A stretch of DNA of 61,028 nt, the filler included, from Jimgerdemannia flammicorona (taxonomy: Eukaryota), in the NCBI GenBank assembly GCA_003990765.1. It is 3 parts of 3 records of this genome, joined end to end, with 100 filler letters (N's around TTAATTAATTAA, not from the genome) between each part and the next. Parts side by side here need not be neighbours in the genome. Positions count along the whole stretch, not along the records: positions 20,382 to 40,658 come from RBNJ01001718.1; 2 more parts are not named here. One strand, given 5' to 3'. The notes under the pieces are model-generated. The model saw only the letters and a program-made list of their open reading frames with translations, made no database searches and was not told where the DNA came from. Shown one piece after another: positions 5,390 through 51,659 of the stretch. The first letter of the stretch is position 1. Each line of letters opens with the position of its first letter. The position numbers and the translations under genes are program-made.

Positions 5390-6999
<1,610 letters not shown>

Positions 7000-20259: not shown

Positions 20260-20281
20260 CTGGCGGTTTTTTTTTTTTTTT

Positions 20282-20381: not shown

Positions 20382-21930
20382 TTTTTTTTAGGAGCCTTTG
20401 CTCTCTCTGCTTTATTCTCTCACTCTCTATTTCTTATAGCTCAAAAAAGGCTCTAATTCTTGTAGCTCAAAAAAGACTCTGATTCTTATAACTTAAAAAA
20501 GACTCCAATTCTCACAGTTCATCTTCAACATATATAAGAGGGTTACTTATTAAAGTAACCATTACATAGTTCTGAAAGGGTTTTCTGGAGGTTCTGGATA
20601 TTCTGAAAGACTATTTTCTTAAGGTCAAGATCAATTTCATATGGAGTATGTTCTCTATACTTATTGATTTTAAATTTGGATTGACATCTCAACCAAAGTC
20701 CTTATTTAGACTAGTTCTAGATATTCAGGATTTTCCATATTTCAGGAAGTTCAAGAAACTAAGACCAGCTTAGTTGAATTGGCATATCACTGCAGATAAT
20801 ACTCAATTAGGAAATTTCATGATAGGGTTAGGAGTGGGACCTAACAGAGAGCAGATTTACTTAAGAGTAGTTTATGGGGTATTAAATAGATTTATTTGCT
20901 ATTCATGATATTGCTATACTAGAAGTAGTTGTGTGAGAGAGTATTATGGAGAATGTTCTTATGTATTTAAGTCTGTTTAAGTCTGAGATTCTGAGGTCTA
21001 GAGAAGAGAGTATTTATACTAGTGAGGGGCTATCTGAACTATACTAGATATAGATATAGTACTTAGTACTTTACTGAGTCAGAATACAGTCACATAGTAC
21101 AAGTATAATCTGATATATCAAGGAATTGTCTGACTGCTAAGTCAGTTCACAGTTACATCATACAAGGCTAATCTAACTTATACTATGACTGCTAAGCTAT
21201 TTATAGATTTAGATACTGTCTGGTTAGTCTTTGATAACATTATCTCTGGCAAAGTCTGAGCAGTTTTCTGACTTCTGATATCATTAGTTTCAAAGGTATT
21301 ATTACCTCTATCTCTTGCAAAACTAAGGCTGTCCTTGGTGGTGGTAGTTGTACAAGGATAATAGGTCTTGGTTCTCTTTTTTTTTGAACTGCTGGCACAT
21401 TTGTGAGGACTGGTCATTCTTGTCTAGGACAAGGGCTCCCAATATCATAGCTGGGGGTTCAAACCTCTTGAAAATGATATTTTCTATAATCTGAGACAAT
21501 TTCTAATAGTAATATCTATCACATAGATGGGCTTGAGATTGGTTTTGACAATATCAGCTTTTTTAAGTTCAGATGAAGTATCTGTTATTCTCCAATAGAG
21601 GTGATATAGATAGAGTGAATAGAGTTATTCAAATGTATTTTGCTTCTGCTAAGTAATGAGATCTTTGTATAGTTGCAGTATATCTTGGTCTTAAGTTGAT
21701 AAGTACAGTTTATGAATCTTTGATGGATGAGATTGTCTCAGTTGAGTTTGGTACTTCAGTTTCCTTTTATAATAGTATATGGTATACTAAAACTAGTTGT
21801 AGAGATTCAGGGTTAGTCTTATGGTTATAGTACTTCTTCTGGTATTCTTATATCTTAGCAGTATATTTACATATCTGCTGGCATATTTTGTATAATCAGA
21901 TGATCTCTTCAGTAACTTGTTTTGTAGTCT
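20382..21930 (-). mobile_element. Decayed 3' remnant of a family-A-like Gypsy element (integrase C-terminus plus probable LTR)
   Basis: 21391-21930 aligns by eye with 33721-34300 (tgctggcacatttgtgaggactgg..., gggcttgag..tggttt). Many transitions and no open frames. Confidence 0.65.
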
Positions 21931-22244
21931 CACATGTGGTTTCCAAATTAGTTCTGAGGATAATATATAATTTTGGTGGCTTAGAGGTTATATGCTTACA
22001 ACTCTCCCCTTCTTAGCTTTCAATGTCCTTATTGGGGCCTTCTAATTTAATCTAGTATTATTGTACCATTTGAATGATTCTTGTAACTATGTTTGTTGAG
22101 GGTTTGTTCAACTTTGTATTCTTCTTAGTCATTAATAATAACAGGTGTAGGTGGTTTTGCAGTATCTTTCTCTGATACCATTTAGGTTACACAACCTTTA
22201 AAAGGTACTTACAATATTGTTTTTGGAGAAAAGAGACTAACAAC

Positions 22245-24268
22245 ATGGCAACCGACAGGCAATCTGAGGTGCATACTGGGCAGGGTGGCCTAAGTGCTTT
22301 TGAATGGCAGTAGGTGGGAAGGGGCCCAGGCCTGGGGGGGGGGCATGAGGGGGCTGCTGGCAGAAGGATATGGAAGGGGTGGAGGTAATGGTGGAGGCCA
22401 AGGGTCTGGGAGGGCAAGCTTTATAGAGATAGTGAAGAGAAGACAGCAGGCATTAGGGCTGGAGGGCTGGCTGAGGAGGGGCAAGGAGACTGAGAAAGTA
22501 GCGGTATATAGGAGAGTAGCCCTTAGAAGGGGGGGGCAGTGGAGCTGGGGGAGTAGTGACTGGGGGGAGTGTGACTGTTGATGGCAATGGAACTGCCAAT
22601 CTGGAAAAAAATCCAGATGTGACAGTTGATAGCAAGGCTGAGCAGCTGAGGCTTGGAAGACAAGAGGATTTGGTAGATGGCGTAATGGGTCTGGCAGTGG
22701 CCTCATTACTCAAAAAATCAATCTCAGTATTTGTGGTTACACTGTACTTCTGGGACTTAGTGGTGATGGCAAAAATGGTGCTGGGGCTTATTACTAAGCA
22801 GGTGGCAGGAGCCATATCAGTGAAGTTTTTGAAGGAACTGGAAGGTGTGGAGGTGGGTTTTGAGGAGGCTGAGCTACTGGAGGAGGCACTGAAGGTTGGG
22901 TTAGTAGTTGGGGAGGTGTGTGTTCCAATGGTATGATGCCTGAAATGGGATCCAAGGGTGGTCTAACTGCTGGTGAAAGGAGTGCCCATAGTGATGGTAG
23001 TGGAGATAAGAAAGAGAGTTGAGGAAGTCATGGCAGAATATGAAGAGGTGGTGGATATTGGATTCAGGGTCTGGGAAGGGACCTTGCTCAGGACTGGTCA
23101 TATGGATGTGAGGATTTGGCTGGCTGGGAAAGAAGCTTCTGAGAAGGTGAGAGACTGGCCTTCAGTGATGGTCTGGGGAGTGATCTTGTGCAAGGTGACA
23201 AGGGTGAAGGGAAGTGAGGAGGAGGAAGAGGATTTATTGGAAGTACTTGAAGAATTGAGTGGTGCTGTAGAGCAGCAAACAAAGACTTGGAAGGCTTTTG
23301 TGGAGTCGACATACTTGGAGGTAGTGGATGGAAAGCAGATTCAAGTAGACAAGGTGCAGTGGGAAAGGGCTCAGGGGTGTAAGAGACAGAAGGATCTGCT
23401 GGCTAAACTGGGAGGCAGACCACTGGAGGATGCAAGCAAGGTGACAGGTATAGAGGGGGCCAAAGCAAGTGCCTGGGCTGGTGAGAGGGGTGGGAATTCT
23501 GGGAAGGAGACAGGGAAGGAGAAGGAGGTGAAGATTAATGATCTGTATGCTGATGATACCTTTGAGGTTTGGGAGGAGGCCTGAGAGGACTCCCCCACTT
23601 CTTCTTCTCTTATTAGACAAGGCCCAGCTTCCAGAAACAAGATAGTGGAGGACATGATAATGCTGGGGGCCCAATGGGTGAAATTTGGAGTTCCAGAAAT
23701 AATAAATGGGGGACATGTGGTGGCAGCCAGAGAGGAGGAACTGGTGGATGTCCCGGAGGTATGGGATGAGGCTACAAGTGCTGGAGCTGACACCATGATG
23801 CTGGATGGAGGGAGGCTGGCGACCCCTGGAGGGAAGGAGGTGGGGAACCTTCTTTGGATATATAGGATGATGAATAACCTGGTGGCAGAAGAGTTGGGGG
23901 AAGTGGACTTACAAATGATGAGTGATGAGCACTGGGCATAGATATTGCAGGGAGATGGAGTGATGATGGCACTGAAGGCAGAAATTCTTGTGGTGTATCT
24001 AGAGGAGGAAGGATATGAGGTGGACAAGAAGTGGGAGGCAGAGATGGCAGTTGTTGCTGGGGAGAGGGCTGAATACTGCTGGAACAAGCATCATGGATTG
24101 CAGCTTTGGCAGGAGGCTTGCATTGAGTACTGGGAGGAGTTTGAGGAGAAGGCAGATAGGGAGATGAATGAGCTGTTGGCTGGATTGGAGGCTCAGAGGG
24201 CTGAAGAGGAGGAGGTGATGGCAGAACATAATCTGGACATGGCACAGGAGATGAATATGGGGCAGTAG
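22245..24268 (+). pseudogene. LINE ORF1 (Gly-rich N-terminus, RRM-like central part, acidic C-terminal part), disrupted
   Basis: ATG at 22245 (MATDRQSEV...), SFIEIVK motif, LVKGVP...YEEVVDIGF...WPSVMVWG; premature stops and a frameshift. Confidence 0.75.
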
Positions 24269-24298
24269 AAATCAACTGATAACAAAACGTATTTCATT

Positions 24299-27200
24299 AT
24301 GAACAGTACAACTAACATTTTTTCTTTGAATGTGAATGGGTTATGGGGTGCTGTTGGACATAGGAACATTTTTACTTGGCTGAAGGGATTGGAGGCTGAT
24401 CTCTTCCTCTTGCAGGATGTCAGGTGTGAGGATGATTCTGATAGGATAGAATGGACAAAAGAATGGGGAGGCATGGCGATTTGGAAAGACAAGGTCGAGA
24501 TTCTGGTTCAGAAGGGCAGAGGGGAGATAAGAGATATGAGGAGCTGGGGGGAGAGACTGGTCTGGGGTTAGTGGATTCATGCAGGCTGGGAGCCAGTTAC
24601 AGTTGACTCCTGTTACTACTCTACTATATGGGGTGAGTATGTAGATTGGGTGAAGGGTCTCCAGGAGAGTGGGATTCTTGCAGAGACTGGGGTGGATATG
24701 CTTGGAGGAGATTTCAATATGGTTCAGGATATGCTGACAGATAGAACAGATGGAGGACGGGGTACTGAGGGCAGGAGTGGAGGGCTAGTGATGTGGGAGG
24801 AAGTAGAAAGACTTAGTGTATTGGTGGATGCTAGCAGGGAGTACTGGGGGAATAGAAGGGTTTATATGCATTGGGCTGGGGGTCTGGGGACAAGGATCAA
24901 CTGGATTCTGATGGCCAGCTGCTGGGGCCAAGATGTTTGGAAGTTGCTAGAGGTGAAATAGTACCCATGGTCAGATCACTGGGATAGGGGTGCTTTGGAG
25001 GAAGTGGGGATGGGCCTGGACATTGGTGCCTAAATTCCTCTGATAATAAGTTCTGGTGGGATGAGTGGGCTAAAAACATTCAGCTGAGGGTGGAGAACTG
25101 GCAACAGAAAGGTGCCTCAATTGGGGTTCAGTGGATGAGGATGAAAGAGATGACCAGGATTTACTGGAGTGAGGCTGGCAAGGAGACAGGGAAGCAGAGA
25201 AGGCAAAGAGTGCATTGGGCTTCTACTCGATTGGCTAGACTTCTGAAGGAGTGGGCGAGACTGGCAATGTTGGAGGGAGAAGAAGATTGGTGATTAATGA
25301 GAGTAAAGATAGAGGTTGGGGAACTACAACAGGTACTGTGAGAAGAGGAAGAGGTAAGGGTGCAAAGCTTGGTGGCATGGCTTTATTGGCAGATGCTGGA
25401 GGAAGGAGATAGGCCTTCCAAGTTTCTCATAAGGGCCCTTATGGCAAGAAGAGTACAGCAATGGTGGGATGAGGTACTTGACTCAGATGGTGTGCTAGTA
25501 TATAGTGTGCAGGACATTCTTGGATTGTTGAAGGAGTGATAGAGTGGATTGTGGAGTGAGGAGGAGAGTGGAGTGGATGCTGATGCCATTGACTGAACAT
25601 TGGAGGATTGGCACCCACCACAAGTAGAGGGGCTAGGTGACCTGGTGATATGTATCTGTAAAGGAGAATGAGATCCACCAGGTTCTTGCCACAACAACCC
25701 CAGGTATGGCACCTGAGGAGGATGGTCTGCCCTGGGACTTCTGGAAGTGAATGATTGGAGTCCCAGGTGTGATGGGAGAGATGATGGCATTGTGCGACTT
25801 TATACTACAGACAGGGAGATGGGTGAGGGAGCAGGATCTTGGGCTGGTGATACTGCTTTATAAGAACAAAGGAAGGTGAGAGGATTGGAAGAACTGGTGG
25901 CCAACAATGTTGCTAGATATGGACAGAAAGTTGGTGACTAAGGTGGTAGTTACAAGGCTACAGAAGGTGGCCCAGCAAGTTGTGGGTGTTGAGCAGAGAG
26001 GATTTGTGGGTGGTCGGCTCATTAGAGATGGCACAGCCTGGATATATGGAGTTATTGAAGGGGTGAGAGCCTGTGGACTAGATGGGCATCTAGTCTTCTT
26101 GGACTAAGAGAAGGCTTATGACCGGGTGTGATGAGTCTGGCTGGAGAAAGTATTGGATAGAACAGGGGTTCTGCACCAATTTTGGTCAGCAATGGTCAGC
26201 CTACTGAAAGGGAGTAGGGCTGCACTCATGTGTAATAGACATAGAGGAGTTGCATTCCCCCTGGGTAGGAGGGTACCTCAGGGGGACCCACTGTCCCCCA
26301 TTTTGTACACTCTTTCCCTAGAACCTCTAATGGACAGAATTAGGCAGAGGATAGTAGGGCTTGCTATCTATGAGATTGGGTGGAAAGTTGGGGCCTTTGC
26401 AGATGATATGGTGGTTGGTTTGGGATCGATTGATGATGTTGAGGAGCTCAAGAAGACAGTGGAGTGGTATGAGGAGAACTCTGAGGCTAAGCTGAATTGG
26501 CATAAGTATGAAACAATGGTGCTAGGCAACAGCCTGATGGGAGGAGAAGTTATAGGAGCAATTGTCCCCACCAGTGAGGCAGTGCAGTACTTGGGTATCT
26601 ATTTGTCAGTCTATGGATCAGTTTTGCCCAGACTTTGGTGGGAGCAGAGGATTGGAATCTGGGAGGAGGACCTGTGGGGTTGGGGGGGAAGATAATTTTC
26701 TCTGGTGGGGTGGGTCTCGATTTTGAATATATATTGGCTGCCAAAGCTGTGGTATTTGGCTTATCACCTGGACTTCCCAGCCTGGGTAGTGAAGAGATTG
26801 ATGAAGGTAGCAAAGGGATGGATTTAGGCTAGCAGATGGAGTCAGATTGGTTGGGAGACATTGTCCCTATTGGTGGCAAGAGGTGGTCTTGGGCTGGTGG
26901 ACTTTCTCAAATGACTATACTGCTTGAGGGCATGGTGGCTAAAGAGGGTGGTGGAGTTGCAAGAAGGTGGTTGGGTTCCCCTACTGCAGAAGATCTAGAA
27001 GAGGCAGTCATTGCCGAGAGGCTCAACTGGTGATCTCCTCTCATTGGTTGGACTTTGGAATACTGAACAATTGCGATATAAAAGATTCTGGTGGGGGATA
27101 GCAGAGGGGGCACACCATATTGGTATTTGCTGGTAGAAGAATGAGGGGGAGGTGGCTTGGGACCCGGTGATGTAGAGATGGGATAGTATACTGCTGAGTG

Positions 27201-27942
27201 GCATTCCTTTAATTGAGTTCGATATTGGTGATGAAATAGAATACCAAAGGGGACTGGGCCAGGATCTGTGGCCTAGTGGTTGGCAAGGAGTTGGAATTGG
27301 AGAAAAATGGGACTGGCATGGTGTTTGGACTGGAGTGCCACAGTGCAAAAGTGGATACCACTGAAGTACTGGGTGGTCTGATGGTGTATGCTGAGGAGGA
27401 ATATAATGCTCAACTTCCACTCAGGGTACCTTATCATAGGGGGTTGCTTCAACTGTGAGGAGTGCCATAATATAGGGCAGGAAGGGGGCTTTGTACAGAT
27501 GCTAGAACATTGGCTGAGAGAGTGTGAGGTGTTGGGAGACTTTTGGCAGGCTATCAGAGACCACTTGGGGGTGAGGGGTAGGAGAGATGAAGTATGGAGG
27601 AGGTGGGAGGACTTGAGGGATTGATTGGTAGAGAGGGTAGGAAAGGAGTAGCTTACCTTAGGCTGGGTGTTGGCCATTTGGGTGAGACTGGCCAATTACT
27701 GGCTATTTGTTTTTGAGGATGAGAGGAGACAGAGCTTGGGGAGCTGGTTGTTGCAGTGGCAGAGTCTTATAGAAGACACCTTGACAGGCTGGTGGCTTGG
27801 TTGGAGGCTGCAGAGTGGTCAGAGGCACTGCTTGATGGAGAAAATCTGTAAACAGAGTGATAAGAGAGTTGGAGTCATTGGTGAGAGGGTGATCTTTATT
27901 TATGAGGAGGTGGGGAGGGGCTCCCCTATGGGGATTGGGTAG
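24299..27942 (+). pseudogene. LINE ORF2: APE endonuclease, reverse transcriptase and C-terminal CxxC..H..C finger, disrupted
   Basis: SLNVNG, LLQD, GGDFN, SDH (APE); PQGDPLSP and FADD at 26396-26407 (RT); CFNCEEC...EHWLREC. Many TGA/TAG stops. Confidence 0.92.
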
Positions 27943-28031
27943 TAGGTAGTGATACTGTATACTTATTCATAGACTGATAATAAAGACAGAGTCCAAGTGA
28001 CTATAAAAAAAAAAAAAAAAAAAAAAAAAAA

Positions 28032-28768
28032 GGTAATCTATAGTCTGTGAGCTTATAGTTAGTAGATATTAGCAAAAAGTAGAATTGGGCTAAAATCTAA
28101 TTTTAGAGTACTGAGGTATAGTAGTGATTTTTTTCTAAGTTTTAGATAGTGTAGTAGCATATTTTATAGAGAATATTATATGGAACTTTAGGACTAATCA
28201 CTTGGTAGATAGTGGGGTCTTCAAGTGTGAAAAATGTTTCAATATTGAGCAGGAGAAGAGAGTGGTACAGACTCTAGAACATTGGTTAAGAGAGTGTAAG
28301 ATACTTAGTACCTTCTGGAAGATAATTAGAAATTATCTTAAAGTATAGTATTATATTAGTAGGAATATGAAAAGGTGAAATAACCTGAGAGAGAGACTGG
28401 AGGAGAGTGTTGGTAATGAGTAACTTATAATTAGATAGATATTGGTAATATAGATAGAGTTGACTAAATACTAGCAGTATATATTTGAGAATAAGTAACA
28501 GATATTATTAGGAGAGAGGGTAACAAGATGAGAAAGATTAATAGTAGACATACTATCTAATTAGTGGAGAAGATAGGGCTCTAAGAGAAATCACTATAGA
28601 TAACTAGTGAAAAAGATATATAAGAAAAATAAGAGACAGATTGTAGTAGTCAGCAACTTAGTAGTATTTTGAAGAGAAGGTGAGAAAAAGAGAATGAGTA
28701 TTAGAGTAAAATAGAGAGAGATTATAGAGCTACCAATATGAACATATTAAGAAAGAGACCTAGTGCTC

Positions 28769-28803
<35 letters not shown>

Positions 28804-28832
28804 ATTAAAAAAAAAAAAAAAAAAAAAAAAAA
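28032..28832 (+). mobile_element. Older, AT-shifted 3' fragment of the same LINE family with a poly(A) tail
   Basis: 28214-28280 (ggggtcttcaagtgtgaaaaatgtttcaatattgagcaggag...gaacattggttaagagagtgt) matches 27440-27530. Ends in A tracts at 28772-28832. Confidence 0.75.
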
Positions 28833-28959
28833 TAACTAAAAGTTATACTCTTTCTATATAGAATTTAAATATACTATATGAAGTATATTGATAACTACTA
28901 TCAGTATATAATTAAGACTAAAGAGATTTATCATTAAGAAAGAAAAAAATTATTAGAAA

Positions 28960-30180
28960 ATATAAAAATAAAGAGAAAAATCAGTAGAAAATAGTAATGA
29001 TGATGAAGAAATCAAAGTTAAGATTTAGATAATCTACTCTAGTATAGTTCTCAAATCTTAAATATCAATTTTACATATTTGCAATTAGTCTAAAGATACT
29101 ATTTTAAAAGACTATATTAGAATTCTCAAGATAAGAAGTAGTCTAGCTAAGAGTGAAATTTCTATAAAAGAGAAGTTATCAATTTAGATTACATTAAAGA
29201 AGTTCTACTCATTATTAGAAACTATAATTTTACATCTCTTTTATAATTAAGAAAAAAGATTAGCTAGTACAGATGTTAATTCTCTCAATATTACAACCTA
29301 AGATATGAAAGTTAAGAAGTTGGAGGAAATAAAAAAAGAAAGAAAAGAATTTAGATCTATAGGAAGAGAAGTCTTCATTAGTATCAAAATTACTAAATTA
29401 AACTATAAGAAGAAGAGAACTATAGACAAGTATAGTTATATTATTAAAAATGAATATTTTTACTCAAAAAGAAACTTAAGAAGCTACTTCATAAATTTGA
29501 AAATATTCTTATTACTGATTTCAAAAATATATATTAAGAGAAGATATTATATTACTATTATAATATTAATATAAGGAATACTAAAATAATTTATCAAAAG
29601 ATAAGACTAATTCAACTAGTATATTATAGATAACTCAAAAAGAAGATTAAGTAGATAAAAGAAGTTAGTATTATTAATTTATAGTTATTACTAATTATAC
29701 TAACTCTAAAGAAAAAAAATAAGTTAGGAGAATTTGCTTTAAAACTTTATATAGACTATAGAAAGCTCAATAAAGTAACTAAGAAGAACTATTAGCTTCT
29801 ATCTCTTATTAGTGATATCTTATTATATATGTATTAGAAGATAAAGTCTAATATTATACTATCTTAGATTTTTACTCAGAATTTTACCAAATTGGTCTCA
29901 CTAAGAAAGCTAGTAAGAGGTCAGTCTTTATTACTCTAGATAGAATCTATATTTATCTATAAATATTATTTAGAATATATAATATATTTCTAGAAAATAA
30001 TAGATAAGATTTTCTAAAATATATAAATAATATTATTATCTTTAGTAAAATAGTCAAAAAATACCTATACTATATTCAGTAAATTTTAAAAAGATTACAA
30101 AAATATGATCTGTCTATTAAGTTTAAGAAATATAAGTTTATAGAAGTTAAAATTTCCTATCTTAGATATATCATTAATTA
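28960..30180 (+). mobile_element. Extremely AT-rich relic of a family-B-like Gypsy pol (dUTPase-RT region)
   Basis: Alignable by eye to 51870-53160 (e.g. agaattctcaagataagaagtagtc vs agaatcctcaagacaaggagtagcc; gactatagaaagctcaataaagt vs gactatagaagactcaacaaggt). Confidence 0.75.
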
Positions 30181-32169
30181 GACTAAAAGCTATATATATT
30201 CTTATTGTAGAATACTTAAAAGAGCAGAGAGAAGAAAGAGAGTATTGTTTATTGATGCTAACTTATATACTTTTATATATATTGATAATATTTATATAAT
30301 AATATAGTTAGGCTATACTACTATATATTGAGTTACTATAACTAAGATATTTCAATACTCTTGCTCAATGAGATATGTATGTTCTAGAATATGTAAAATA
30401 TGTAAATAAAAGACTAACTAAACATAACTAACTAGATACTATCTAGATGATCAGAAAAGGTTAAAATTCTCTGCTTATAAGTATGAAATTAGATCAAAAA
30501 TATAGTAAAAGACTGATAATATAGATTTAGAATAAAGAAATATAAGCAATATTAGAGAAATATATATAAGATATATAGAAATATAGAGATATATATATAT
30601 GTAAGATGTGGTAGAAGACTTTTAGAAGTCAGAAAGGTTGTATAATTTTTATCAAAATACTTAAATATTGATTATTGATATATAGTTTCTATTAATATAG
30701 AGTTACCTGTTATAAGTTCTATTCCTTATATATATAAGCCAAACTTTGTCTTTAAAAGGACTTTAGTCAATAAATCTACTATTATATACTTTATTAGAAT
30801 GTATTCTAGATATATAGTACTATTTTCCATACATTCTCATACAAAATAATGCTGTATATCAATATGCTTCATTCTAGTATAATATATAGGGTTCTTTACT
30901 ATAGCAATCATAGACTAATTATCTTATTGGAGTAGTATAGAGTACTATTGATCATATTCTAACTTCTTTAGAAGTTTTCAAAGCTACATATATAGCTTTC
31001 TTTATTACTATAGATAATACTTGATACTCTACTTATATAGATGATATTACCACTGAAGATTACTTATATGTTTGTTTTGAAATAGCTCTATTTTTACTGA
31101 TTTTAAAGAGATATCTAGTTGTAGAATACCAAATGTCAAGATCTTTAACTCAGTCTATATTATATATACTAGATAATCTTATAATACTCTCACTTGATCC
31201 ATTATCATCACTTAAATATAGTATATAGTATGCTATATCTTTGATATACCTTACTTAATTGTCATCTAATATAAATTATCATAGCAGAATGAGTATTATA
31301 CTACTTTGTTAGCTATATATAATATATATTGTGGCGTTGGTTATGTATAATAAACTTCGACTGCATGGCTCAATGTGTGCCACTTGGTGGAGTGTGTGAT
31401 GGATATGAGTGCATTGGTGACGTTCGCAGGTCGATAGTCACGTGATTGGGTCATTCAAAACATGTGATAATAGCAGGACTTTGATTATTCAATGATGGTG
31501 GCTCAATTGTTTAGTGAAAAGGCATTTTCCTGGTGGCAATTAACTTGGTGGCAAACTTGAATTTATGTGGTGATGACAGGCTTGCTCTTTGTGCAGTCAA
31601 TTAAAGCAGGCGATGGTCTTGACTTTAAGCGGTTCATGGCGTAGTAGGTCGGGAAAATGGAGGTTGATGGCTCACTCGTCCATCTAACTTGTTAACTTGA
31701 GGGTGAGTTTACTGGGGTCCTTGGCAGTTGTTCTTGCTAGCTGGCGGGTCTTGTATTGGTATCCTTGAGTTCCTTGGCTTTTCGGGGTCTTGAATCTCGA
31801 ATGGCAGTGAATGGCGGTCTCGAATGGTGACGGTTCTTGAATCCTTGGCTGGGTCTCAGGTCTCGAATGGTGGCGGTCGGGTAACGTTTTCTTTCTGTGG
31901 CCAGAGAAAATTCTTTAACTCAAACCTCGAGCAATCATTACTCTAGTTATCTTGTTCTCAGAATTTATCTGGTCTCTTGGAGGCAGTGGTTATTTCTCAA
32001 AATCAATTGACTGAGGTTTATTCACTCTAAGAATATGGGTTATTTATACAAGTTTGCTAGCTATGGGAGAGGGGGGCACGACTAAGGCTAAGGTATACTA
32101 CATTGTGGCGAACTTATGCTATTGGTTTGCACGATGCGAGGTGCAGGCTATTGTTTACTATGGATTGGG

Positions 32170-32415
32170 TTGTAGGGGATAGCAACACTGGATTCAGACT
32201 TGCTGACAAAATGCTGAAAATGGTGGCACTGGATAGCAATGCTGAAAACGGTTGTGCTGGGTAGCAATGCTGAATTCGGATGAGCTGACATGATATGATG
32301 ATTGTTGCCAGAAACGGTTGTAGAGGGTGGCAATGCTGAATTCGGATCTGCTGACAAGATGCTGAAAATGGTAGTACTGGATAGCAATGCTGGAAACGGA
32401 CTTGCTGACAAAAGC
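32170..32415. repeat. Degenerate tandem repeats in U3 of the family A LTR
   Basis: Recurring ggatagcaatgctgaa / gctgacaa units; related repeats at 57690-57890 in the other LTR copy. Confidence 0.7.
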
Positions 32416-32443
32416 TGGGTTCTCACGGCTGATGGGCAGTACT

Positions 32444-33430
32444 CTAGAGGAAATGGTACCCTTCGTCCATGGTGGGCAAATCTTGCTGGGTTGTGATTTC
32501 TTCTTCATCATATCTCTCCTCAAAGGGGGGAAGCACTGGCCAAGAGGTGAGGGGGTAGAAAAGTGGCCAGTCATCTTCAACAACATTCTCCAACCCTTGA
32601 ACAGCTTGAATGTGGACAGAGGACTGGTAGACTCTCTGTTGCTCCTCTTCTTCTTCTGAAGACTCATCAGTTTCAGTGTCAGAGGGGATTTCTTCAGGGG
32701 CAGGGCCTTGGAGTTCTTGGGCCTCCTCTTTAAAGACAGGAACTTCTTGGGCTTCTTCTTGATTCAGTTCCCAAATGATGAGGTGTGAATTGTGGCTGAC
32801 AAGGTGGTGGGTGATTGGGGTAGCTCCAACAGGTACTTCTACGGTAATGGGCAGTCCTTCAAATATCTCCATAAGGCTTATTAGGTGACCTTGATGGTTG
32901 TCTCGGAGTGGGGTGGTGTGGAAACCTGGCTGAGTAGGTTCGGTTTGTTGGCTTCCTACAGCAATGCAGTTGCTGCCAATAGCATTGGCTACTTCAGATT
33001 CTATCCAGTCAGCATCTTCAGTTGAAAGGTGGGAGAGGCTGCCAGCTGTTACTCCTTGCAAGTGTGCTATAGCCCAAGAAATATGGCGGAAGATTTGATG
33101 GACACAGAGGGCTCTCTTGATTAGCCGGCTGGTGGTTAACATTTCGGCAATGAGGTCTTCCTGGTCACCTTCTTGAGTCTCATTGCGAAGGCGGTGTCTG
33201 ATTTCATAGTCATGCCAGAGGGTCATTCGTTCGGTAGTGTCTTTGAGCTATTGGGTCATTATATACCGGTAGTTGATGAAGTGTCCAAGGTCCTCAGTGT
33301 AGAAGTTCAAGTATTCGGAAGTATCTGGGTGCCAGATGGCCTTCTTGATAGCTTCAAAGATCAGGGTCTTTGGGCCAGGCAAAGGGGTAGAGCGGCGGGA
33401 GGTCTGGTTGGTTCGGCGAATGAGAGGCAT
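32444..33430 (-). CDS. LTR(U3)-encoded ORF of unknown function, ~329 codons with one in-frame TAG (33248-33250)
   Basis: ORFs 33248-33505 and 32444-33226 are in the same frame, 7 codons apart. A homologous, disrupted copy lies at 56723-57615. Confidence 0.65.
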
Positions 33431-33698
33431 TGTATGGTGGGTACTTGGTTCTTTGGTGCCGATCCTTGAGGTGGAGTATGGTTCCTTAAATAACGTGGTC
33501 TTCATTTTGGCTCAGATCATCTTGTCTTCTTTTGGGATGATCACCTAATGGATCAGGCTGTCTATTTGATTGTCACGCCATTATGTCATCTGATCTTAGC
33601 AGTCACCGGTACTCTATTGTCAATTGTGTACGTCACATCTGCCCCTTGCAAAATTAGAGCTGTCCTCAGTGGTGAGGGTTACACAGAGTTGGGTGGTC

Positions 33699-36600
33699 TT
33701 AACTCCAGGGACGAGCGGAATGCTGGCACATTTGTGAGGACTGGCCATCCTTGTCTAGGGTGAGGGCTCCCATAGTTGCGGCTGGGGGTTCGAACCCATT
33801 GGAAATAGTATTACTTGTAATCCGAGGCAATTTCTTAGTAACAATGTCTGTCACGTGGATGGGCTTGAGTCTGGTTTCAACGTTGTTGGCTTTCTTGAGT
33901 TCCAAGTGAAACGTCCATCGTATCTCCAGCAGAGATGACACAGACAGAGTGAACAGGATTGTTCAAATGTGTTTTGCTTCTCTTGAGTAGTAGAGTCTTA
34001 TGTGGTTGTGATATATCTTGGTCTTGAGTATAACTCCATCCAAGGTCTTGAGTTGATAAGTGTGGTTTGAGAACACTTGATGTATGAGATAGGGGCCTTC
34101 CCATTTTGGTTCAAGCTTGGCACTCCAATTTCCTTCTATGATGGTACAGTACACCAGAACCTTTTGTCTAATGAGCAGGGGTTCGAGGTCGGCTTTGCGG
34201 TCATAGTACCTCTTTTGTCATTCTTGTGCCTTGGTGATAAATCCTCGTGCTTGCTGGCATATATCGTGTAACCAGGTGATCTCTTCTGTGACTCATTTTG
34301 ACAGATCTAGCTGGACTGGTTCAGTAGGATCTTGTGCTTCTTGGCCATATACCAAATAGAAGGGGGTCTGTTAGGTAGCGGTTACCTTAGAGGTATGGAT
34401 GCTGAACAGAATTGCCAGTAGATAGATGTCCCAGTTTAGTTGATCTCTGGTTCTACTGAGACCTCGCTTGATGGTCTGGTTCATTTGTTCAGTGAGTCCA
34501 TTTACCTGTGGGTGGTAGGCTGTTGTTGGTCATAGCTTGATCTTGAAGTTGCTCGCAAAGGTCTTTATGGCTTGGTTGACGAATTCTTGGCCTTAGTCTG
34601 TAATGATTTCCTTGGGCACACCATGGTGGGTGAAAATTTCATCTTATAGGATCCCAATAATTGTCTGGGCATCGGCAGTCTCAATGGCAAAGGCTTCGGG
34701 CCATTTTGTCAAGTGGTCTTCGATGGTGAGGATGTAGCGTCTTCCTCGGCTGGTTACTGGTAGAGGTCCAATAATGTCTATTCCCAGTCTTTGAAAGACT
34801 CCAGCTGGTGCTGCGATCAGTATTAATGGTGCTCTGTTGGTAGGCTTTTGTCGGTATCTTTGGCAGATATCACATTGTTGAATGTGTGTTGAAATTTGTT
34901 TTCTCATCTTGGGTCACCAGTATCGCTTCTTGATTCTTGCAATTGTGGTACCAATTCCTCGGTATGTATTTTGATCATGATTTGTTGTCAGGATCTTCAA
35001 TATTTCTTCTTCTCTTGGAACTTGAGTGTATTGCTCTCCTTCTACTCTCCAAAGTTTGCCATCACCTTCTTGGAATTTCTTGAAATTCCTTTGGATAAAC
35101 AACTTGTGGGCTGGTTGGATTCCTTTCTTGAAGCTTCTATGGTGTAGACTCTAGGTGAGGGCGAGGCGCAATTCTTGGTTCATTTGGGTGAGCGGGAAGC
35201 AGCCTTCTCTCGTGGGGGCTCCTTCCCTTCTTGTTGGTTTCGCGGAATTCTTGACAGGATATTGATGTTGAAATTCTTAGTACCTTTCTTGTAGACAATA
35301 GTGAACTGATATTCTTGCAGAGACATGATCCATCTAGCGAAGATTCCTGAGGGCTCCGGCTTATTGAACAACTATTGTAGAGCTTGATGGTCAGTGATGA
35401 GGGCAAATCTCTTTCCCAAGAGATAGTGTCAGAAGTGGTCCACAGCCCAAACTACTGCTAGGCATTCCAACTTAGTGGCTCCATAGTTCGCTTGTGTTTC
35501 ATTCGTGGCCTTGCTAGCATATTCAATAACATGCTCCCTCTTCTGGTCATCTTGCTGAGACAGAATTGATCCAAGTCCTAAGGCTGAGGCATCAGTTACC
35601 AGGATGAATGGTTTGCCAAAGTCTGGTCACACCAGGATGGGGGCTTCAGTAAGGGCCTTCTTGAGTAGGTCGAATGACTGTTATTGTTCTTCTTTCCAGT
35701 AGAATGGTTGGTCCTTCTTGGAGATATCTCGGAGAGGTGCTGCCTTATCTGAAAACCTTGGGATGAATTGTTGATAATAGGATGCTAGCATAAGGAAGGA
35801 TAGGGTCTCCTTTGCTGAGGTTGGGGTTGGATAGTTCTTGACTTTCTCCACCTTGCGGGGGTCGGCATGCATTCCTTGAGCTGAGACAACATATCCCAGA
35901 TATTCGACTTGATGTTTTCCGAAGAAGCACTTCTTGGCATTGAGTCTGAGTCCTGAATTTCGAATGGTATTGAATACTTCATGGAGGTCTTGCAAATGCT
36001 GCTTAAATATCTCAGAGTAGATAATGATATCATCTATATACACTAGTACATTTCTTCCAATGAGGTCCCGGTAGACATAGTTCATCATTCGTTGGAATGA
36101 GGCAGGTGCATTGCAGAGTCCAAAGGGCATTCAGAGATATTCATACTGTCCTCATCTGGTAATGAAGGCTGTCTTGCAGATATCTTCTTTGGCAATGGGT
36201 ATTACTTGGAATCCTTGGAACTGGTCAGTAGTGGTCATGTATTTGGCTTTTCTGAGGGCATTGATGAGGTCATCAATTCTTGGCAGTGGGTAGGCATCTT
36301 CTGTAGTAGCTTTGTTGAGTTTTCTGAAATCCATGACTAATCTCCATCCTCCTTTCTTTGGTACTATGATTGCTGGTGAGGCCCAGGGGCTTGATGATGG
36401 TCTGATGACTCCATTTCATAGCATTTCATCTATATGTTGTTGTTCGAATTCAATCAGATGATGTGGTGTTCGGTAGGGTCATTGTTGGATTGGTCTTGCA
36501 TCTCCAGTATATATAGGGTGTTCTCCATATTGATATGGTGAGAAGTTATCATATGTGGTGGTAAATATATCTTTGTACTCCTCTATCAACTCCTGTATTT

Positions 36601-39600
36601 GTTGTTACTGGTCCTTGGTTAGAGTTGTCTCGATGTCGACAGCTTTGATTGCTGAATTTGCTGAGTCTTCCTCTCTGGTACCGTCAGTCTCACTGGAGAG
36701 GGCTTGCCATTTCCCAAGAATTCGAAGACTTCTTCCTCGTAGATGTCTATCAGTGGTTCGAAATATCCCAGTGTTGTTCCCTTGGGGATAGTTATTACTT
36801 CGAAGCCTGAGTTTCTGATAGGGATGTGGATTGGTGACATCTGGTCATGAATTCATTCTTCAGCCAGGAGGATGTGGTATTCCTTTTGAAGCTCCAGTGA
36901 TGGTGCAAATATCAAGTTGTTTGCTTCTACTGGTAGGTGCACATCTAGGCCTTTTTTCTGGTAGGGCTGCAGGAGGATGTCTTCTCTTGCTCAGATTGGG
37001 CGGCAGATGTGGGGTCTTATTTGTCAGAATTGAGCAACTGTTGCCAAATGAACCTCGATAGGTGGTGTCCGTAGATTTCTATTGGTGCTTCCAAAGCCTC
37101 CTTGTCTTCTGTTGGTATCTTCTAGTTGGTCTATCTCTTGGATGGTCGGCTGTAATATCTTGATAAACAGAATTTGGCAGATGGCTTCCATAGGACTGAA
37201 GAATCAGCTGGTTCTACTAGAATTGCATATAATGACCTTCAAGGGACCTCGGTAGTCCTGATCGATGACTCCTCCTTCTACTGTGACTCCTTTGGTTGCC
37301 AATGAGGATCTTGAGGCCAATTGTCCATAATGCCCCAGTGGTATAGCGAGTGCGATCTATAGATCAAAAGTCCTGGTACTTCTGGGTCGGATTCTTGCTT
37401 GGTAGGGGAGGCAGAGGTCATAACCAACTGATCCTTCTGTTTGTGCAAGAGGTGGCTGTGCCCAGGGTGAAAGCAGCTTGACCTGGATAATTGGTTGAGC
37501 TTTGAGAAATGGCACCTCAGCTGTTGCCAGTATAGGTGAGAAGTCCATGTGCTCCAGTTTGAAGAAAGGCCAGTGAGCTCCCATCTTTGAGTTTCTTGTG
37601 TAATTGAATCCAGTCTTTCCTAGAGGGTCCAGAGCTTCCATAAGGATGAAGGCAAGATTGATACCTTCGTTTCCTTGATGAGGGTGGCAGTACCAGTGAA
37701 TGATGGCAAGAACTTCCAATGGTAGATCCCAGATAGAGGTCTTGCTCTTGAACTTACAATCTCCTTCATAGTTGATTTCCTTGCACTTCCGACAGGCCCA
37801 GCAAATTCGAGGTTCTTGCAGGGTGGGGTCCTTTCTCTTAACTCGGCTCTTGTAGACATCTTCACTGAGGTGAACATCTCGATGTTCACACCAGTAGCAG
37901 GTAAAGGTTTTTCCACAATCACAATGTCCCTTCTTGACAAAGTCTTCATTTCACTGTTTGACCTCCCTACTGGTAGGGAATCTCTTCCGATACTTGTCAT
38001 AGGTGGGCTGTGTGATCTGGAGGGCCTGAGTGATAGTGTAAGAGCTGTTGCTTTCTCCTTCAATGGTAAGGGACTTGAATGTTTGGCGGGCGAGGATCTT
38101 CTGTCCTTCCTTATAGGTCTTCTTGAAGGTCTTTGGGGTTGGAGGTTGCATTCGGCTGTGGGATGGTGCTTGCTTCAATTTGTTCTTGTTATTAATTTCT
38201 GGCATTGGAACCTTCTTGAGATCCAGGATTCAGCAATTGCTGCAATCATCTCTTGGTGAGTGGAAGCTGATGAAGTGTTCGCATATGCCTCAACAAAAGG
38301 CTTGCATGATCTGATTTTCTACCAGTGGTGGTGGTGGTTGAGCAGAAGGTCCTGCAAACTCAAGTGCTGCCCTTGCATTAATGGCTCTATCAATGCTTTC
38401 TTCCAGGCCTTCAACACCAATAACTCCAATGAAAGAGTCTTCTTGTTCGCTTTCTTGGTCCCTTGGGGCATCAAAATCACTTCCTAGTTCTTGTAGGAAA
38501 TTGGCCTTGCTTTCATCCTCAGTAGTAGTGGGGGTGTCGCCATGTCCTTGCCATTCTGTTTCTGAGGCTTGATTCATCTTTTTAGATAATCCTTTCGAGT
38601 TAATGGGCATCTTGTGCTTCTGTCCATGAGTGGAGAAGACCAGGAGTTGTTTCTTGATATCTACATTGGCTCCCACTCGGCTTAACCAGTCAGTTCCCAG
38701 GATCAGGTCATAGGAGGTTGTGGGGGTCATGACAGCTTTGGGTACATTGAGGCGGGCCTTTCCAACTTGAATGGGGATGTCTCTGACAAGTCCAAGGGGT
38801 GTAGAAGCTGATCCGTCGGCCATGATAACTCTTGCTTTGGTTCCTTCATCTATTCTCCATCCAATTCGCTCCAATATCCTTTGGGTGATGATGCATACTG
38901 CTGCTCCAGTATCGATGAGAATTCTGGCATTTTCACCATGCACTTTTCCATCGGCGAGTCTTGTAGATTGATGTTCATGTCACTGGCTCTCATGGACTGT
39001 GTGGATAGTGCTAGATTCTTGAGTGTGTGGTCCTTGGACTAGAAGTCTCTTGGTGTCTTCCTTGGCTTCTTTCAGGAATTTTTGCCTGACCTCTGGTACT
39101 TTCTTGAGGACTTGCTCAACTGTAAGACCAGCATTCTGTAGGTGGATATGTTCCCAAAGTGAGGCTGCTGCATGGGGCTTGCTGCTTCTTCGGTGTCTTG
39201 GTCCCTTGGGGTGTAGTCTCTCATTCCTGATGGGCATTTCATCAGCTGAAGATTCTATACTCATATGCTCATCTTCTTCAAGGTCTGGCAGGGTAGAGCT
39301 GGGGGTTGTCCTAGATGGTCTGGCTTCTGGTTCAGGAGTATCTCTTCTAACTCGCTTCTCCTGTTCTTGTAGAGTATCTGAAGAAGAATAGCCATGTCGA
39401 GGATGCTTGCCTGTGGATATAGTTACTGGCAGTTGAGGTGGGGGGTTCCTTCATGGTCTTCCTCGCCCTCTGGTCTCTGCGGGGGCAGCTTTCCATATCA
39501 CCTTGGATGGAAAGGCCTCGAAGTACGGGTAGATGTCATCTTCCTGACCATGGAGTCAGGCTGCTTCTTCTTCCATCTCCTGAGTCTCTTCATCTACCTG

Positions 39601-40620
39601 AAAGAGGTTGACATTTCTGTCATTGGACTAGGTGGATTGGTTCCTTGGACAATTCCTCTGGATGTGGCCTTGATTTCCACAGCTGAAGCAGGTGGGACCA
39701 TAGAAACCAGTCACTGATGAGGCTGTAGTTGCAGCTGATAGTGTGGGGGCAGGACCTCTGTTGTCTTGTTGCCAGTAGTCTGGTCTGTTATCACAACAGT
39801 AGTCTTGTTGTCTTCTACCTTGGTTGTTCAGCTGGGCAACCGTGATGGCCAGGTCCTTCATTTGCTTGGTGAGCGTTATTATAGGGTCTTCTTGAACTCT
39901 TGATGGTGGCTGCTGCTGTGGTTGCCTGAATGGAGTCGGATTTGTAGGTGCTGGTCTGTTCTCATAGTTGGTTATCTGGGCTCTGAGGAAGGCATTCTCT
40001 TGCTCCATAGTTGTTCCTCGGGTCCTTGGGGGTTCGGCTCAGATTGGCTCAGGATAGCCTTATACTTGTTGTACTGGTCTATAATCTGCTTCCCAACATC
40101 CTTGTGCTCCAGCAACTTGCTGTTCAATGTTTCGATATCCCATCCTGATAACTTGCCTTTGTAGTTCTGGATATAAGCCATTGAGGAAGGTAGTTGAGGC
40201 TAGGGCCAGTTGGACTGCTGGTTGAAGGTTCGCCTTGATCATTTGAGCTTAAATCCGATGATAGAAACTCTTGGGAGTTTCATTGGCAGCTTGGCTCATA
40301 TAGGTCAAAGCCTCCTGTGCTTCTTGTTGGCACTCGAATCCATTGAACTGGGCATGGAGCCAGGCTTTGTGAATCATGTACCTTGCTACATGGTTCCTAT
40401 CAGGTTGAAGGCCGTCATTCAGTTCCTCTGTATAGATTCCTCCTCCGGCTTGCTTGGCTTGATTATACCTCTGTAGGGCCGGTCCTCTCAGGAGTGACTC
40501 CACGATTCTGAGTTTTCTTGCAGCATCCCATTGTTTGGCGGCTGCTTGAACTTCAATTTCTCCAAAGAATTCCTCGATATCTTCATTGTCTGCACCATGG
40601 AACTTCTGAAGGTAGCTCAT
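33699..40620 (-). pseudogene. Family A gag-pro-dUTPase-RT-RH-IN polyprotein, interrupted by premature stops
   Basis: The ORF fragments join through TGA/TAG/TAA stops that mostly sit at CGA/CAG/CAA-compatible positions. Confidence 0.9.
37081..37495 (-). pseudogene. dUTPase domain of family A pol
   Basis: All five trimeric dUTPase motifs: VGYDL, SRSS, GVIDQDYRG, ICQIL, RRQGGFGST. Confidence 0.92.
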
Positions 40621-40658
40621 GTCTGGCTTGTCTTCACTATCTGAGTATTGTTCAGGGG

Positions 40659-40758
40659 NNNNNNNNNNNNNNNNNNNNNNNNNNNNNNNNNNNNNNNNNN
40701 NNTTAATTAATTAANNNNNNNNNNNNNNNNNNNNNNNNNNNNNNNNNNNNNNNNNNNN
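40659..40758. other. Artificial contig spacer (N44-TTAATTAATTAA-N44)
   Basis: Same structure as 20282-20381. Confidence 0.97.
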
Positions 40759-41360
40759 CCCCTCTCACTCTTACTTCTCCCCCCCACCTCCTCACAATGA
40801 AAGACCACTTTGTCAAACATCATCTCTATCTGTCTGTTCACAGATCCCTTTTACTAGATGGTGATATCACCTGCCCTAGAGACTCCAGCCGACCCACCAC
40901 CTAGTCAGCAGATCTCCCAACAACCCCTCCCACCTTAACAACTTCTTCTACAGACCTATCTGTTACCCATCCTTGAAAATGAAGAGCCAATGTCCAGCCA
41001 ACCCTACCCACACTGCTAAAACCCACTCTACAGTGAGTCACCTATTATCAATACCTCCTACTAGTTGAGATTTCAAATCCTCCCAGTGATCTCTCTCTCC
41101 ATCCAACCTCCTCTCTACACCCAGCTGGTCTCCTATAGCTATCCAAAAGTCTCCCAAAACCTCACACTCTCCTAGTCAATGTTCTGGCATTTATATAAAT
41201 CCCCCAACCTGCCCTACATTATAACACTCCTTACAATCCAGTTGGCCCCTATCTACCAGATGCCCAGTACAGAAATTCAATATAATATTCCTCCACAGTA
41301 TCCACTACTATACTACTCAGAACTTGGGAGGAAGCCACCTCTATACATCAGCACTCAATA
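40759..41360 (-). mobile_element. 3' fragment of the LINE family (C-terminal finger region), reverse orientation
   Basis: The reverse complement of 41161-41250 matches gagtgttacaatatagggcaagttgggggtttggtgcagatgccagaacattgg at 51081-51135. Confidence 0.8.
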
Positions 41361-42694
41361 ATATTACCATCAATGATCTCATCTCTGATAAAGTAGTCAT
41401 CTAGAAAGAGTTGTTCATGGATTAATTCTCCTTATTCACTGAGATAATAATACATTGGGACTTCATTACTATTCCATAGGATAGCATCATCTGTCTTATA
41501 TGCTGGATAAGATATTGGTAGGCAAAGGAGGGGTACATCATCTTCACTTTCATCAGATTCACAGTCTGTATACCTTCTATAAGTTATGGCACTATGAGTT
41601 GCTGGGTTGTAGTAAGCTGGTAACTGTGGTTCATGTTACTCATACTTAGATAGTGGACTTGTTGGTTTGATCTCAAGAGTTATCTAGAGGTATAGATTGT
41701 GTTCTCTAGTCTTTTCATTATAGTTGAAGTAATTAGGAGTAAATGTGGGTTAGTACTCATACTAGTGATCATTGTCTCAATAAGTTTTGTAGGTGGTTAT
41801 GAACTGTTGTAAGTTCATTGGCAAGGTTGGCAGTATGATCAGAGTTGGCAGAGATCCTTGGCTTGAGATCATATTGATATCAGAGGAATCATTGTCTTCT
41901 GCTTTGTCTTCATCAAATCAGATTATATTATAGATATCCTTCATAGCATATTTAACTTGAGGCATTTGTAGGATATGATCATTGAGGTGTAAGAAGGTTC
42001 TGCCTATAGTCTGAATGTATTTGAGATACTTATAGTTGAGTTCTTATATCATGTCACTTATTTGGCTGTAGGACAGGATAGCAACCATTTCAGTAGTAGT
42101 AATTTGGAGGTAGGAGATAACAGTGCTATACTCATAGAAGAGTTCTCAATGTTTGCAGACAATAAGTTTCTAGTGTTGAGATATCTAGATAATATCTGTA
42201 TCATGATAGTGTTCAATTATATCTTTCAGGAGGCAGCTGATCTGATAGTAGCTTGAGATTTGTCCAATTTGGTGAGCTTTGCTAAGTATGTTCAGGGCAT
42301 TCTATTGGGCTTTTACAAAGTAGAGGAGTGATAGGCTATGGATATTCATGAGGGGCAGAGGGGGTGTGGCTTAGTTGATAATGAAATTCCAAATATCAAC
42401 ATAGATGTAATTGTAGATCTCAGTAGTCATATTTGTATATGTTCAGGAGTTAGAGTTATTTGTTTAGTTTGTTTTAGTTCTTTGTTTTGATATATCTTGG
42501 TGCTTGGTATATATACATTTGGTCCTAATTGGTAAGATTCTATTTGTATGAATCTTATATTCTATGACTTTATATTGACTCAGCTTTGTGCACTATGACT
42601 TCAGTTTGACTCAGCTTCATAATCTTGCAGGTGATTTCCAGATTTATTCAGGAGTCACATGTAATTTCAGTGGCTTGGAGGTTGTATGCTTATA
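41361..42694 (-). mobile_element. Decayed probable LTR of a third retroelement family, containing a disrupted ORF
   Basis: Minus-strand start tataagcatacaacctccaagccac matches tgtaagcatataacctctaagccac at 22000-21976, which follows a PPT-like ggggagagt. Confidence 0.4.
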
Positions 42695-43402: not shown

Positions 43403-43846
43403 TGTGATAGTACAGCCAAAGTTGGAAGAAGGAAATAGGGAATAGACACTCGATTGCACCCAGTCCCAAAGTAGTATAGCCTTATAGTTAGCAGTTCTCA
43501 ATTTCGACATTGTTTAAATTCTTAGACATCATCCAAATCGAACGTTCCAATTTAGTATTATTTAGACATTGTCCAAATATTTCGACAAAGTCCAAATGAC
43601 TCATTTATTATTTAGCCACCTTTACATAGCTAGCAAACTTGTATAAATAACCCAGTATCTTGGAGTGAATAAACCTCAGATTGAAAGTGTTAGAAAAAGA
43701 ACAAGTATACTGATAAAAGGACCTTCAGGATTACCTCTTTAAACACATTTGGCCTTAAGGAACTACTGACTCTGGGAGTCAAGAAGATAAGAATTCAAGA
43801 TAAAAAAATCCAACATACTTGCCTGTCTTAGTGTCCACTAGTTACA
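43403..43846 (+). repeat. Family B 5' LTR (444 bp)
   Basis: Direct repeat of 55507-55972; TATAAATA at 43642, AATAAA at 43668; followed by PBS-like TGGTGCCCATTGG at 43850. Confidence 0.95.

Positions 43847-51654: not shown

Positions 51655-51659
<5 letters not shown>

Follow-up and report, generated by a model that had tools for sequence, protein, structure and literature searches.

A selected accessory gene probably housed in the long terminal repeats of a dUTPase-bearing Ty3/Gypsy lineage of Jimgerdemannia flammicorona

Protein-coding long terminal repeats (LTRs) are textbook matter for only a few retroviruses. Mouse mammary tumour virus (MMTV) carries the open reading frame (ORF) for its superantigen, sag, in the U3 part of its LTR, and the nef gene of the human and simian immunodeficiency viruses (HIV and SIV) overlaps U3. 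Here we describe an accessory ORF in the LTRs of degenerate Gypsy retrotransposons of Jimgerdemannia flammicorona, found in a stretch of 61,028 nt (the ‘window’) that consists of three parts of three records separated by fillers of 100 N, positions 20,382-40,658 being from RBNJ01001718.1. In the account that we hold to be probable, the ORF serves a dUTPase-bearing Ty3/Gypsy lineage as a true accessory gene and sits inside the LTR, between the polypurine tract (PPT) with the adjoining LTR start on one side and the TATA/poly(A) core on the other.

The extra ORFs (aORFs) of LTR retrotransposons that are described in PMC7264820 are placed in the internal region: the env-like ORFs of Athila and Bagy2, the antisense ORFs of Grande, RIRE2 and Retand, and that of Boty. 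ORF0 of Retrosat2 is also internal, upstream of gag (PMC3485330), and an ‘add. ORF’ is drawn for some fungal elements, according to a figure legend in PMC2864245. The latter source also places a dUTPase between protease and reverse transcriptase in fungal Gypsy elements, namely PosPlaTy3-5 of Postia placenta, elements of Phanerochaete chrysosporium and Tmt1 of Tuber. A gene with its own promoter inside an LTR is described for the Cassandra terminal-repeat retrotransposons in miniature (TRIMs), where it is 5S rRNA-like (PMC10886601). In searches of article texts for ORFs inside retrotransposon LTRs we found only MMTV for an LTR location, hits on Talaromyces and on crocodilian endogenous retroviruses being irrelevant; an earlier description in figures, supplements or Repbase is possible.

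The window contains two LTRs with the ORF. These had been taken in a first-pass annotation for the two ends of a single Gypsy element, a view that has to be given up: one is on the minus strand and the other on the plus strand, and they are parts of two separate, incomplete Gypsy copies of opposite orientation, A and B, whose LTR arms form inverted repeats. The LTR boundaries in that annotation were correct. The 3' LTR of copy A (31330-33637, minus strand; 2308 bp, TGT...ACA) starts with TGTGACG at 33637, immediately 3' of the purine tract AAGGGGCAGA (33646-33638), which lies between the pol stop codon (33701-33699) and the LTR start, and ends with ...CGCCACA at 31330, where it adjoins an AT-rich flank. 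The 5' LTR of copy B (56519-58464, plus strand; 1946 bp) is homologous to it from end to end. It begins at the base homologous to the A LTR start, the first after an AT-rich flank, with TATGACA, its TG having mutated to TA, and ends with ...CACGACA at 58464, followed by the primer-binding-site-like (PBS-like) sequence TTTTGGGGGCTCAACTGG (58465-58485). The TG...CA ends, the PPT before the 3' LTR of copy A and the PBS-like sequence after the 5' LTR of copy B were read from the sequence. In BLAST searches of the window with either LTR, only the A and B copies were found.

In copy A the ORF (33430-32444, minus strand) has 329 codons and a single in-frame TAG at codon 61 (33250-33248), and is open for 260 codons from 33226. 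In copy B (56723-57615, plus strand) it is dead: codon 53 has lost 1 nt, codon 61 is the same TAG as in copy A, and further stops follow as TGA in codon 68, TAA in codon 176 and an early TGA in codon 319, besides deletions of 57 nt and 6 nt. The first-pass annotation had seen the same sense-strand ORF in each LTR, upstream of a TATA core. The two ORFs are indeed homologous and both lie upstream of the core, but 33430-32444 is not one open frame and copy B is no longer a gene.

Despite this decay, the divergence between the two ORFs has the pattern of protein-coding DNA. Differences between A and B number 42, 32 and 90 at codon positions 1, 2 and 3. Over 300 of the 304 gap-free aligned codons (out of 329; the four stop-bearing codons were dropped), the ratio of nonsynonymous to synonymous divergence, dN/dS, is 0.177 in the ORF frame (dS 0.64, dN 0.11; bootstrap 0.12-0.26); the remaining two frames give 0.92 and 0.98, and each of the four quarters of the ORF gives a value within 0.11-0.26. 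At the position of the TAG of copy A, all five close homologues that cover the codon have glutamine, so the TAG in the window is a C-to-T hit on CAG. The ORF is thus a genuine coding gene, kept by purifying selection over a long divergence. A mere chance open frame in a long LTR would suit the interruption of both window copies and the failure to recognise a family or fold, but such a frame is already contradicted by a dN/dS of 0.18 in the ORF frame alone and by open relatives at 30-80% identity, and it deserves almost no credence. An accessory gene is what the first-pass annotation had proposed, with dN/dS as the means of checking it, and both the A-B ratio, far below 1, and the open frames among the relatives bear this out.

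These relatives form a protein family without a name, a Pfam model or a solved member. In large protein collections, a single-sequence search gave three clusters, the largest with six members, a library of 50%-identity representatives gave six matches at E<=0.001 and a profile search gave 13 proteins. The 21 related proteins are all from JGI or ENA records, with none from NCBI or UniRef and none named beyond ‘hypothetical protein’. Those that are open and full-length have 271-342 amino acids (P0001, 325; P0004, 324; P0008, 331; P0013, 342; P0014, 271; the ORF of locus L001, 291). There are three subfamilies, about 30% identical to one another, which have in common a start MP..R, a conserved core and an acidic tail. 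The core motifs W..YEI, A..HQ[IV]F.H.P, LS......E..VA and DN.DQ.L..L...F.G..I are found across the subfamilies.

Locus L001, a 1535-bp metagenome contig, was the sole locus from a scan of metagenome DNA with P0013. A scan with P0001 matched 586 stretches of metagenome DNA without any relative amongst them, and scans of viral contigs with P0001, P0014 and the L001 ORF gave no relative. The contig opens on the C-terminal end of a pol, homologous to the tail of copy A. Some 290 nt past the pol stop, at a spacing like that of copy A, an intact ORF of 291 codons begins, with TATAAAAG 80 nt before the ATG. To this extent the layout of copy A is retained in a distant lineage, where an LTR around the ORF is a presumption. 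The ORF of L001 is flanked by a 33-nt direct repeat (170-202 and 1481-1513, 82% identical), of which one unit is close to where the LTR is presumed to start and the other comes after the presumed core. In copy A, pol runs for some 120 codons past its SH3-like domain (34074-33701, minus strand), and the end of this tail is conserved in L001; the pol of a related element in the window, element C, ends after about 23 codons (54926-54996, plus strand).

The place of the ORF within the LTR is given by a core module, ...ATAGCTAGCAAACTTGTATAAATAACCC...GAGTGAATAAACCTCAG, at 32010-32068 (minus strand) in copy A, which we take as the likely U3/R junction. It includes TATAAATA (32048-32041) and AATAAA (32022-32017). 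Between A and B the module ATAGCTAGCAAAYTTGTATAAATAACCC...GAGTGAATAAACCTCAG is identical at 52 of 59 bases, and the TATAAATA...AATAAA core lies downstream of the ORF in both LTRs (32048-32017 in A, 57942-57973 in B). The module comes after tandem repeats, which lie in the stretch of U3 that leads from the stop of the ORF to the core promoter: in copy A these are units of about 148 bp with 28-nt sub-repeats (32168-32408, minus strand), and in copy B an 84-bp unit is present 2.2 times (57702-57884). Each of the two short LTRs of element C has this module too, roughly 285 nt in from its start. Since it is common to the LTRs of A, B and C, it is expected to mark the promoter/poly(A) core, which places the ORF upstream of it; on this homology the ORF is within U3, as the first-pass annotation had it, and a gene in U3 is duplicated with each LTR. 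The junctions of the ORF are homologous in both LTRs, contrary to the alternative, raised at the same time, that the ORF had been inserted independently.

The two copies have not diverged uniformly. The leader and gag of copy B (58465-61028, plus strand) are ended by the window edge, and its gag is 94% identical to that of copy A (38949-40658 in A, 59319-61028 in B), with a dS of 0.11 over 152 codons against the dS of 0.64 for the LTR ORF. This disparity indicates exchange of LTRs, or recombination, between sub-lineages, such that interior and LTR would have different histories. By the same comparison, the ORF-bearing LTR exists in at least two old variants, both maintained by selection. The copy B leader of 855 bp (58465-59319) is without a counterpart in copy A.

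The lineage to which the gene belongs is seen best in the internal region of copy A (33638-40710, minus strand), where Pfam searches of stop-to-stop pieces found gag with a CCHC knuckle (40710-39631), protease (38979-38293), dUTPase (37356-37027; PF00692), reverse transcriptase (36415-35684), RNase H (35626-35432), integrase (35150-34647) and an SH3-like domain (34217-33966), all of them interrupted by many stops. This is the Ty3/Gypsy (Metaviridae) order of protease, reverse transcriptase, RNase H and integrase, with zf-CCHC in gag, and element C has the same order. In both, the dUTPase lies between protease and reverse transcriptase (PF00692 at 51617-52282 in C).

Element C (43403-55973, plus strand) is a related dUTPase-bearing Gypsy element with short LTRs of about 450 bp (approximately 43403-43847 and 55507-55973). 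A LINE-like (long interspersed nuclear element-like) insertion at 46166-51658 splits it between protease and dUTPase. At the protein level it is colinear with copy A through protease, dUTPase, reverse transcriptase (about 44% identical), integrase and the SH3-like domain. The first-pass annotation had named shorter LTRs that leave out the ORF as a finding that would speak against it. None is seen for the A/B family in the window, but the related, distinct element C does have LTRs that exclude the gene.

The gene nevertheless seems to be present in element C, outside the LTR. A six-frame search of the window with the family profile found copies A and B and one further place, 55239-55433 (plus strand), within what appears to be a decayed homologue of the accessory ORF (55033-55470, plus strand; profile-matched part 55173-55466) between the pol stop (about 54996) and the PPT/3' LTR start (55507). 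With X at the stop and a profile lacking the window's own row, 55173-55466 scored 27.1 bits, whereas the best of 5000 shuffles reached 8.6. When the remnant was split at its stop, the two halves were the top two non-self pieces of 1487 (E 0.038 and 0.16). Upstream of the 5' LTR of element C there is no homology to the remnant, so in this element the gene is internal.

Elements A, B and C share the order of pol, ORF, GTAGTATA motif and core; what differs is the PPT/LTR start, which precedes the ORF in A and B but follows it in C. The motif, CAA(A/T)GTAGTATA(G)CCTTA, is 3' of the ORF in all three, and it is the only colinearity detected between the post-ORF spacer of A and B and the U3 of C (its score was reached by 0 of 300 shuffles for A and 8 of 300 for B). 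In related elements, then, the gene is found within the LTR in one case and outside it in the other, which points to a shifted priming site. We think it reasonably likely that the gene crossed the boundary by relocation of the plus-strand priming site, the PPT, in either direction. In the simplest reading, the PPT would have been relocated across the accessory gene; since both ends receive a copy of whatever lies between PPT and R, the gene would then be found in both LTRs.

Another reading is that of a transduced host gene, or a passenger without a role in the element: gene capture by LTR elements is known (PMC7264820), and the protein has no retroelement domain. We regard this origin as improbable: every context seen (A, B, C and L001) is retroelement-linked, the same architecture is found across three subfamilies that are about 30% identical, selection has persisted over a dS of 0.64, and the 21 related proteins include neither one named other than ‘hypothetical protein’ nor one from NCBI or UniRef. 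There were also no longer or fused forms among 8000 candidates, which is weak evidence.

How a gene so placed might be expressed is suggested by the non-coding 5' part of the LTR (33431-33637, minus strand, in copy A), a putative promoter and 5' untranslated region. In this conserved 207-bp part, 175 of the 204 bases that align (85.8%) agree between A and B, against 57% at synonymous sites, 57% in the post-ORF spacer and 63% in R/U5; the corresponding figure for nonsynonymous sites is about 89%. Both copies have a TATA-like box here, TATTTAAG at 33492-33485 in A, 62 nt before the ATG, and TATTTAAA at 56662-56669 in B, 61-62 nt before it. A stretch of 207 bp as constrained as nonsynonymous sites, with a TATA-like box, leads us to infer that the LTR may be a self-contained transcription unit, a proposal whose chances we put at about even. 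A TATA-like promoter in the constrained first 207 bp would drive a monocistronic mRNA of about 1.3-1.5 kb, ending at the LTR's own AATAAA, which lies at that distance downstream in any LTR. If so, 5' LTRs, 3' LTRs and solo LTRs, of which the window contains none, could each express the protein.

The main rival is expression in the retroviral manner, with the gene as the 3'-terminal cistron of an RNA from the core promoter of the 5' LTR, reached by a spliced subgenomic message or by internal initiation, and the 5' LTR copy of the gene as silent baggage; env-like aORFs, sag and nef would be the models. The position of the ORF directly after pol in copy A and L001, and in the classical place between pol and PPT in element C, is what this route would predict, and in plant elements aORF messages are described as spliced (PMC7264820). 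Against it are the constraint on the 207 bp before the ATG, the TATA-like box, whose distance is fixed across two diverged LTRs, and the canonical TATAAAAG before the ATG in a third lineage, L001; it would also require an intron of about 7 kb. We therefore rate the retroviral route as doubtful, and the self-contained unit is favoured over it; both could coexist. The fuller proposal, that the PPT move created an autonomous LTR cassette of promoter, ORF, enhancer repeats and poly(A) signal, by which any LTR is a potential source of a trans-acting nuclear protein, is a speculative one.

The accessory protein begins with a short basic segment, continues in a conserved core of helical character and ends in a strongly acidic tail. 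The tail has a net charge of -15 to -28 in all six sequences compared (five open full-length proteins, and copy A of the window with the TAG read as Q) and is rich in W, F, Y and L, with the motifs DLISFED, VLNFL and EDDWPLFYPL. None of the six proteins has a membrane-type segment (maximum Kyte-Doolittle mean 1.09). Two AlphaFold2 (AF2) models, with mean pLDDT of 44.8 and 50.1, both have a helical core, and only residues of about 20-35 and 100-165 in the second reach 68-90. A helical-looking N-terminal half and an acidic tail had been described in the first-pass annotation.

The family was not recognised in that annotation, nor by the searches made here. There is no Pfam family for the window ORF or for 13 aligned members, the only hits being sub-threshold (Rep_fac-A_C at E 0.22, and ATG5_HBR in 2 of 13 at E 0.088), and no match to the Sag and Nef families or to an HTH (helix-turn-helix), RNA-binding or known adaptor domain in Pfam. 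A sequence-profile search of PDB gave no match at E<=1, and Foldseek against PDB gave nothing at E<=0.001. In the ESM Atlas, P0001 had no usable match and the L001 core led only to unnamed or unrelated clusters (0.90-0.93, with fewer than 170 shared features). With VIA-align, most of 50 rows were HTH or winged-helix proteins against residues of about 70-115 of a low-confidence model (best Z 5.1, rmsd 4.2, 59 aligned).

These features are those of a soluble protein with a disordered acidic tail studded with aromatic residues and leucine, and of specific roles we would tentatively suggest that of a nuclear regulator or transactivator acting on the core promoter of the element itself or on nearby chromatin. 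It is possible, at somewhat short of even chances, that the protein is instead a cofactor of replication or integration: an import/export chaperone or adaptor, an integration tether replacing a chromodomain, or a suppressor of host silencing. Purifying selection in a transposing lineage fits any role in the element cycle, acidic tails occur in chaperones too, and no chromodomain was detected at the pol end (no Pfam match at E<=0.01 among 119 ORF pieces, which were those of at least 45 amino acids from degenerate copies). RNA-export accessory proteins are known in other elements, such as CERV of Cer1 (PMC10309623). Against such a cofactor there is the lack of an RNA-binding or known adaptor domain and of a structural match, and nothing specific.

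A number of points tell against the account of an LTR-borne regulatory gene given here. The ORF is broken in both window copies, and no element in the window is seen with both of its LTRs, A being truncated at its 5' end, without a 5' LTR in the window, and B being ended by the window edge; the presence of the gene in both LTRs of a single copy is deduced from the 3' LTR of A and the 5' LTR of B. The remnant in element C spans only some 65-98 core residues, and each half alone is weak, the best reversed-sequence control having reached an E of 0.16, equal to that of the second half. The relatives are all from short unnamed metagenome records, with genomic context seen for L001 alone. The sites of transcription start and polyadenylation, the upstream promoter and the assignment of U3 and R are predictions from sequence signals, and the conservation of the 207 bp could in part reflect integrase recognition or enhancers instead of a promoter. 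As to a regulatory role, the function is drawn from composition and from models of low confidence, Foldseek lends it no support, and the HTH rows all have Z<=5.1, below the noise line that the tool states for helical models.

The copies form part of a nest of retroelements, with element C, set between AT-rich blocks (GC 0.23-0.35, at 28000-31330, 41400-43400, 55974-56518 and about 20400-22000). Homology between copies A and B stops abruptly at 40658. A 3' fragment of a LINE-like element (40874-41356, minus strand), 73% identical to 50954-51437 in inverse orientation, adjoins this point. A hidden 5' LTR of copy A, degraded by repeat-induced point mutation (RIP), was sought in 41357-43401 and rejected: a transition-blind local alignment scored 172-191, against shuffle maxima of 212-219 and 1115 for the A-B control. 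A fragment at 21390-21924 matches the 3' end of pol in copy A (33721-34300) at 68% identity, in the same orientation, and no recognisable LTR or ORF comes after it. The LINE-like element bears RVT_1 and is present in two plus-strand copies, 22556-28032 and 46166-51658, 68% identical; in the sense strand of both, G very strongly outnumbers C (GC skew 0.41-0.48, with a GC content of about 50%). The B LTR carries more C-to-T/G-to-A changes than the A LTR (187, against 132 in reverse), CpA being the commonest context (45 of 106 C-to-T). The AT-rich blocks, the transition excess and the CpA context together suggest a RIP-like decay. No tRNA gene and no Rfam match was found in the window. Upstream of the nest, on the minus strand, are host genes with long uninterrupted exons for electron-transfer flavoprotein alpha (6026-7066), a muniscin mu-homology protein (13520-14632) and homogentisate 1,2-dioxygenase (19896-20333). 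Such exons suggest a compact genome of fungal kind, and the RIP-like AT-rich blocks and the dUTPase-bearing Gypsy elements likewise hint at a fungus.

A selected gene in a Gypsy LTR means that a solo LTR could be a gene and not just a promoter. Estimates of LTR age and divergence are affected, since part of the LTR is under purifying selection, and such genes would escape annotation pipelines for transposable elements in which LTRs count as non-coding. Related elements that carry this gene within the LTR in one case and outside it in another offer a concrete and testable mechanism for LTR growth and gene gain, relocation of the PPT. If the account is right, the protein of a solo LTR could serve the whole family or be open to co-option by the host, and a PPT shift would be a general and so far undescribed route for loading genes into retrotransposon LTRs.

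Amongst known systems, MMTV sag and HIV nef are alike in being sense-strand protein ORFs within U3, and hence in both LTRs of an integrated element. They belong to vertebrate retroviruses, and Sag is a type II membrane glycoprotein; in contrast, the accessory ORF has no sequence relation to them, its product has no membrane segment and a TATA-like box lies directly 5' of it. Foamy virus Tas/Bel1 and the Tax protein of human T-cell leukaemia virus (HTLV) are element-encoded nuclear activators with an acidic activation region, and foamy virus dedicates a second promoter to its activator. These offer an analogy with the function proposed here, no homology having been found.

The aORFs of other LTR retrotransposons resemble the present gene as lineage-specific extra genes of unknown function that are conserved among family copies, and the copy in element C is exactly in the classical sense position. 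In contrast, the ORF of A and B is beyond the PPT, inside the LTR, and its product has no transmembrane domain and is not env-like. The dUTPase of A and C lies between protease and reverse transcriptase, as in the fungal Gypsy elements, a likeness of domain order; an ORF in the LTR is not mentioned for those elements in the parts of PMC2864245 that concern them. In Cassandra, a gene with its own promoter is embedded in the LTR and duplicated along with it, as may be so in A and B, where the promoter is putative; there, the gene is a pol III one for an RNA, and the element, from plants, is non-autonomous, as against a pol II-type protein gene in an autonomous-type Gypsy element. In crapaud of Podospora, U3 has diverged into subfamilies around a conserved internal region, with exchange of LTRs (PMC10787394). 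The LTRs of crapaud are of 339-443 bp and non-coding, unlike those of A and B, but the two cases are alike in setting a conserved interior against diverged LTRs.

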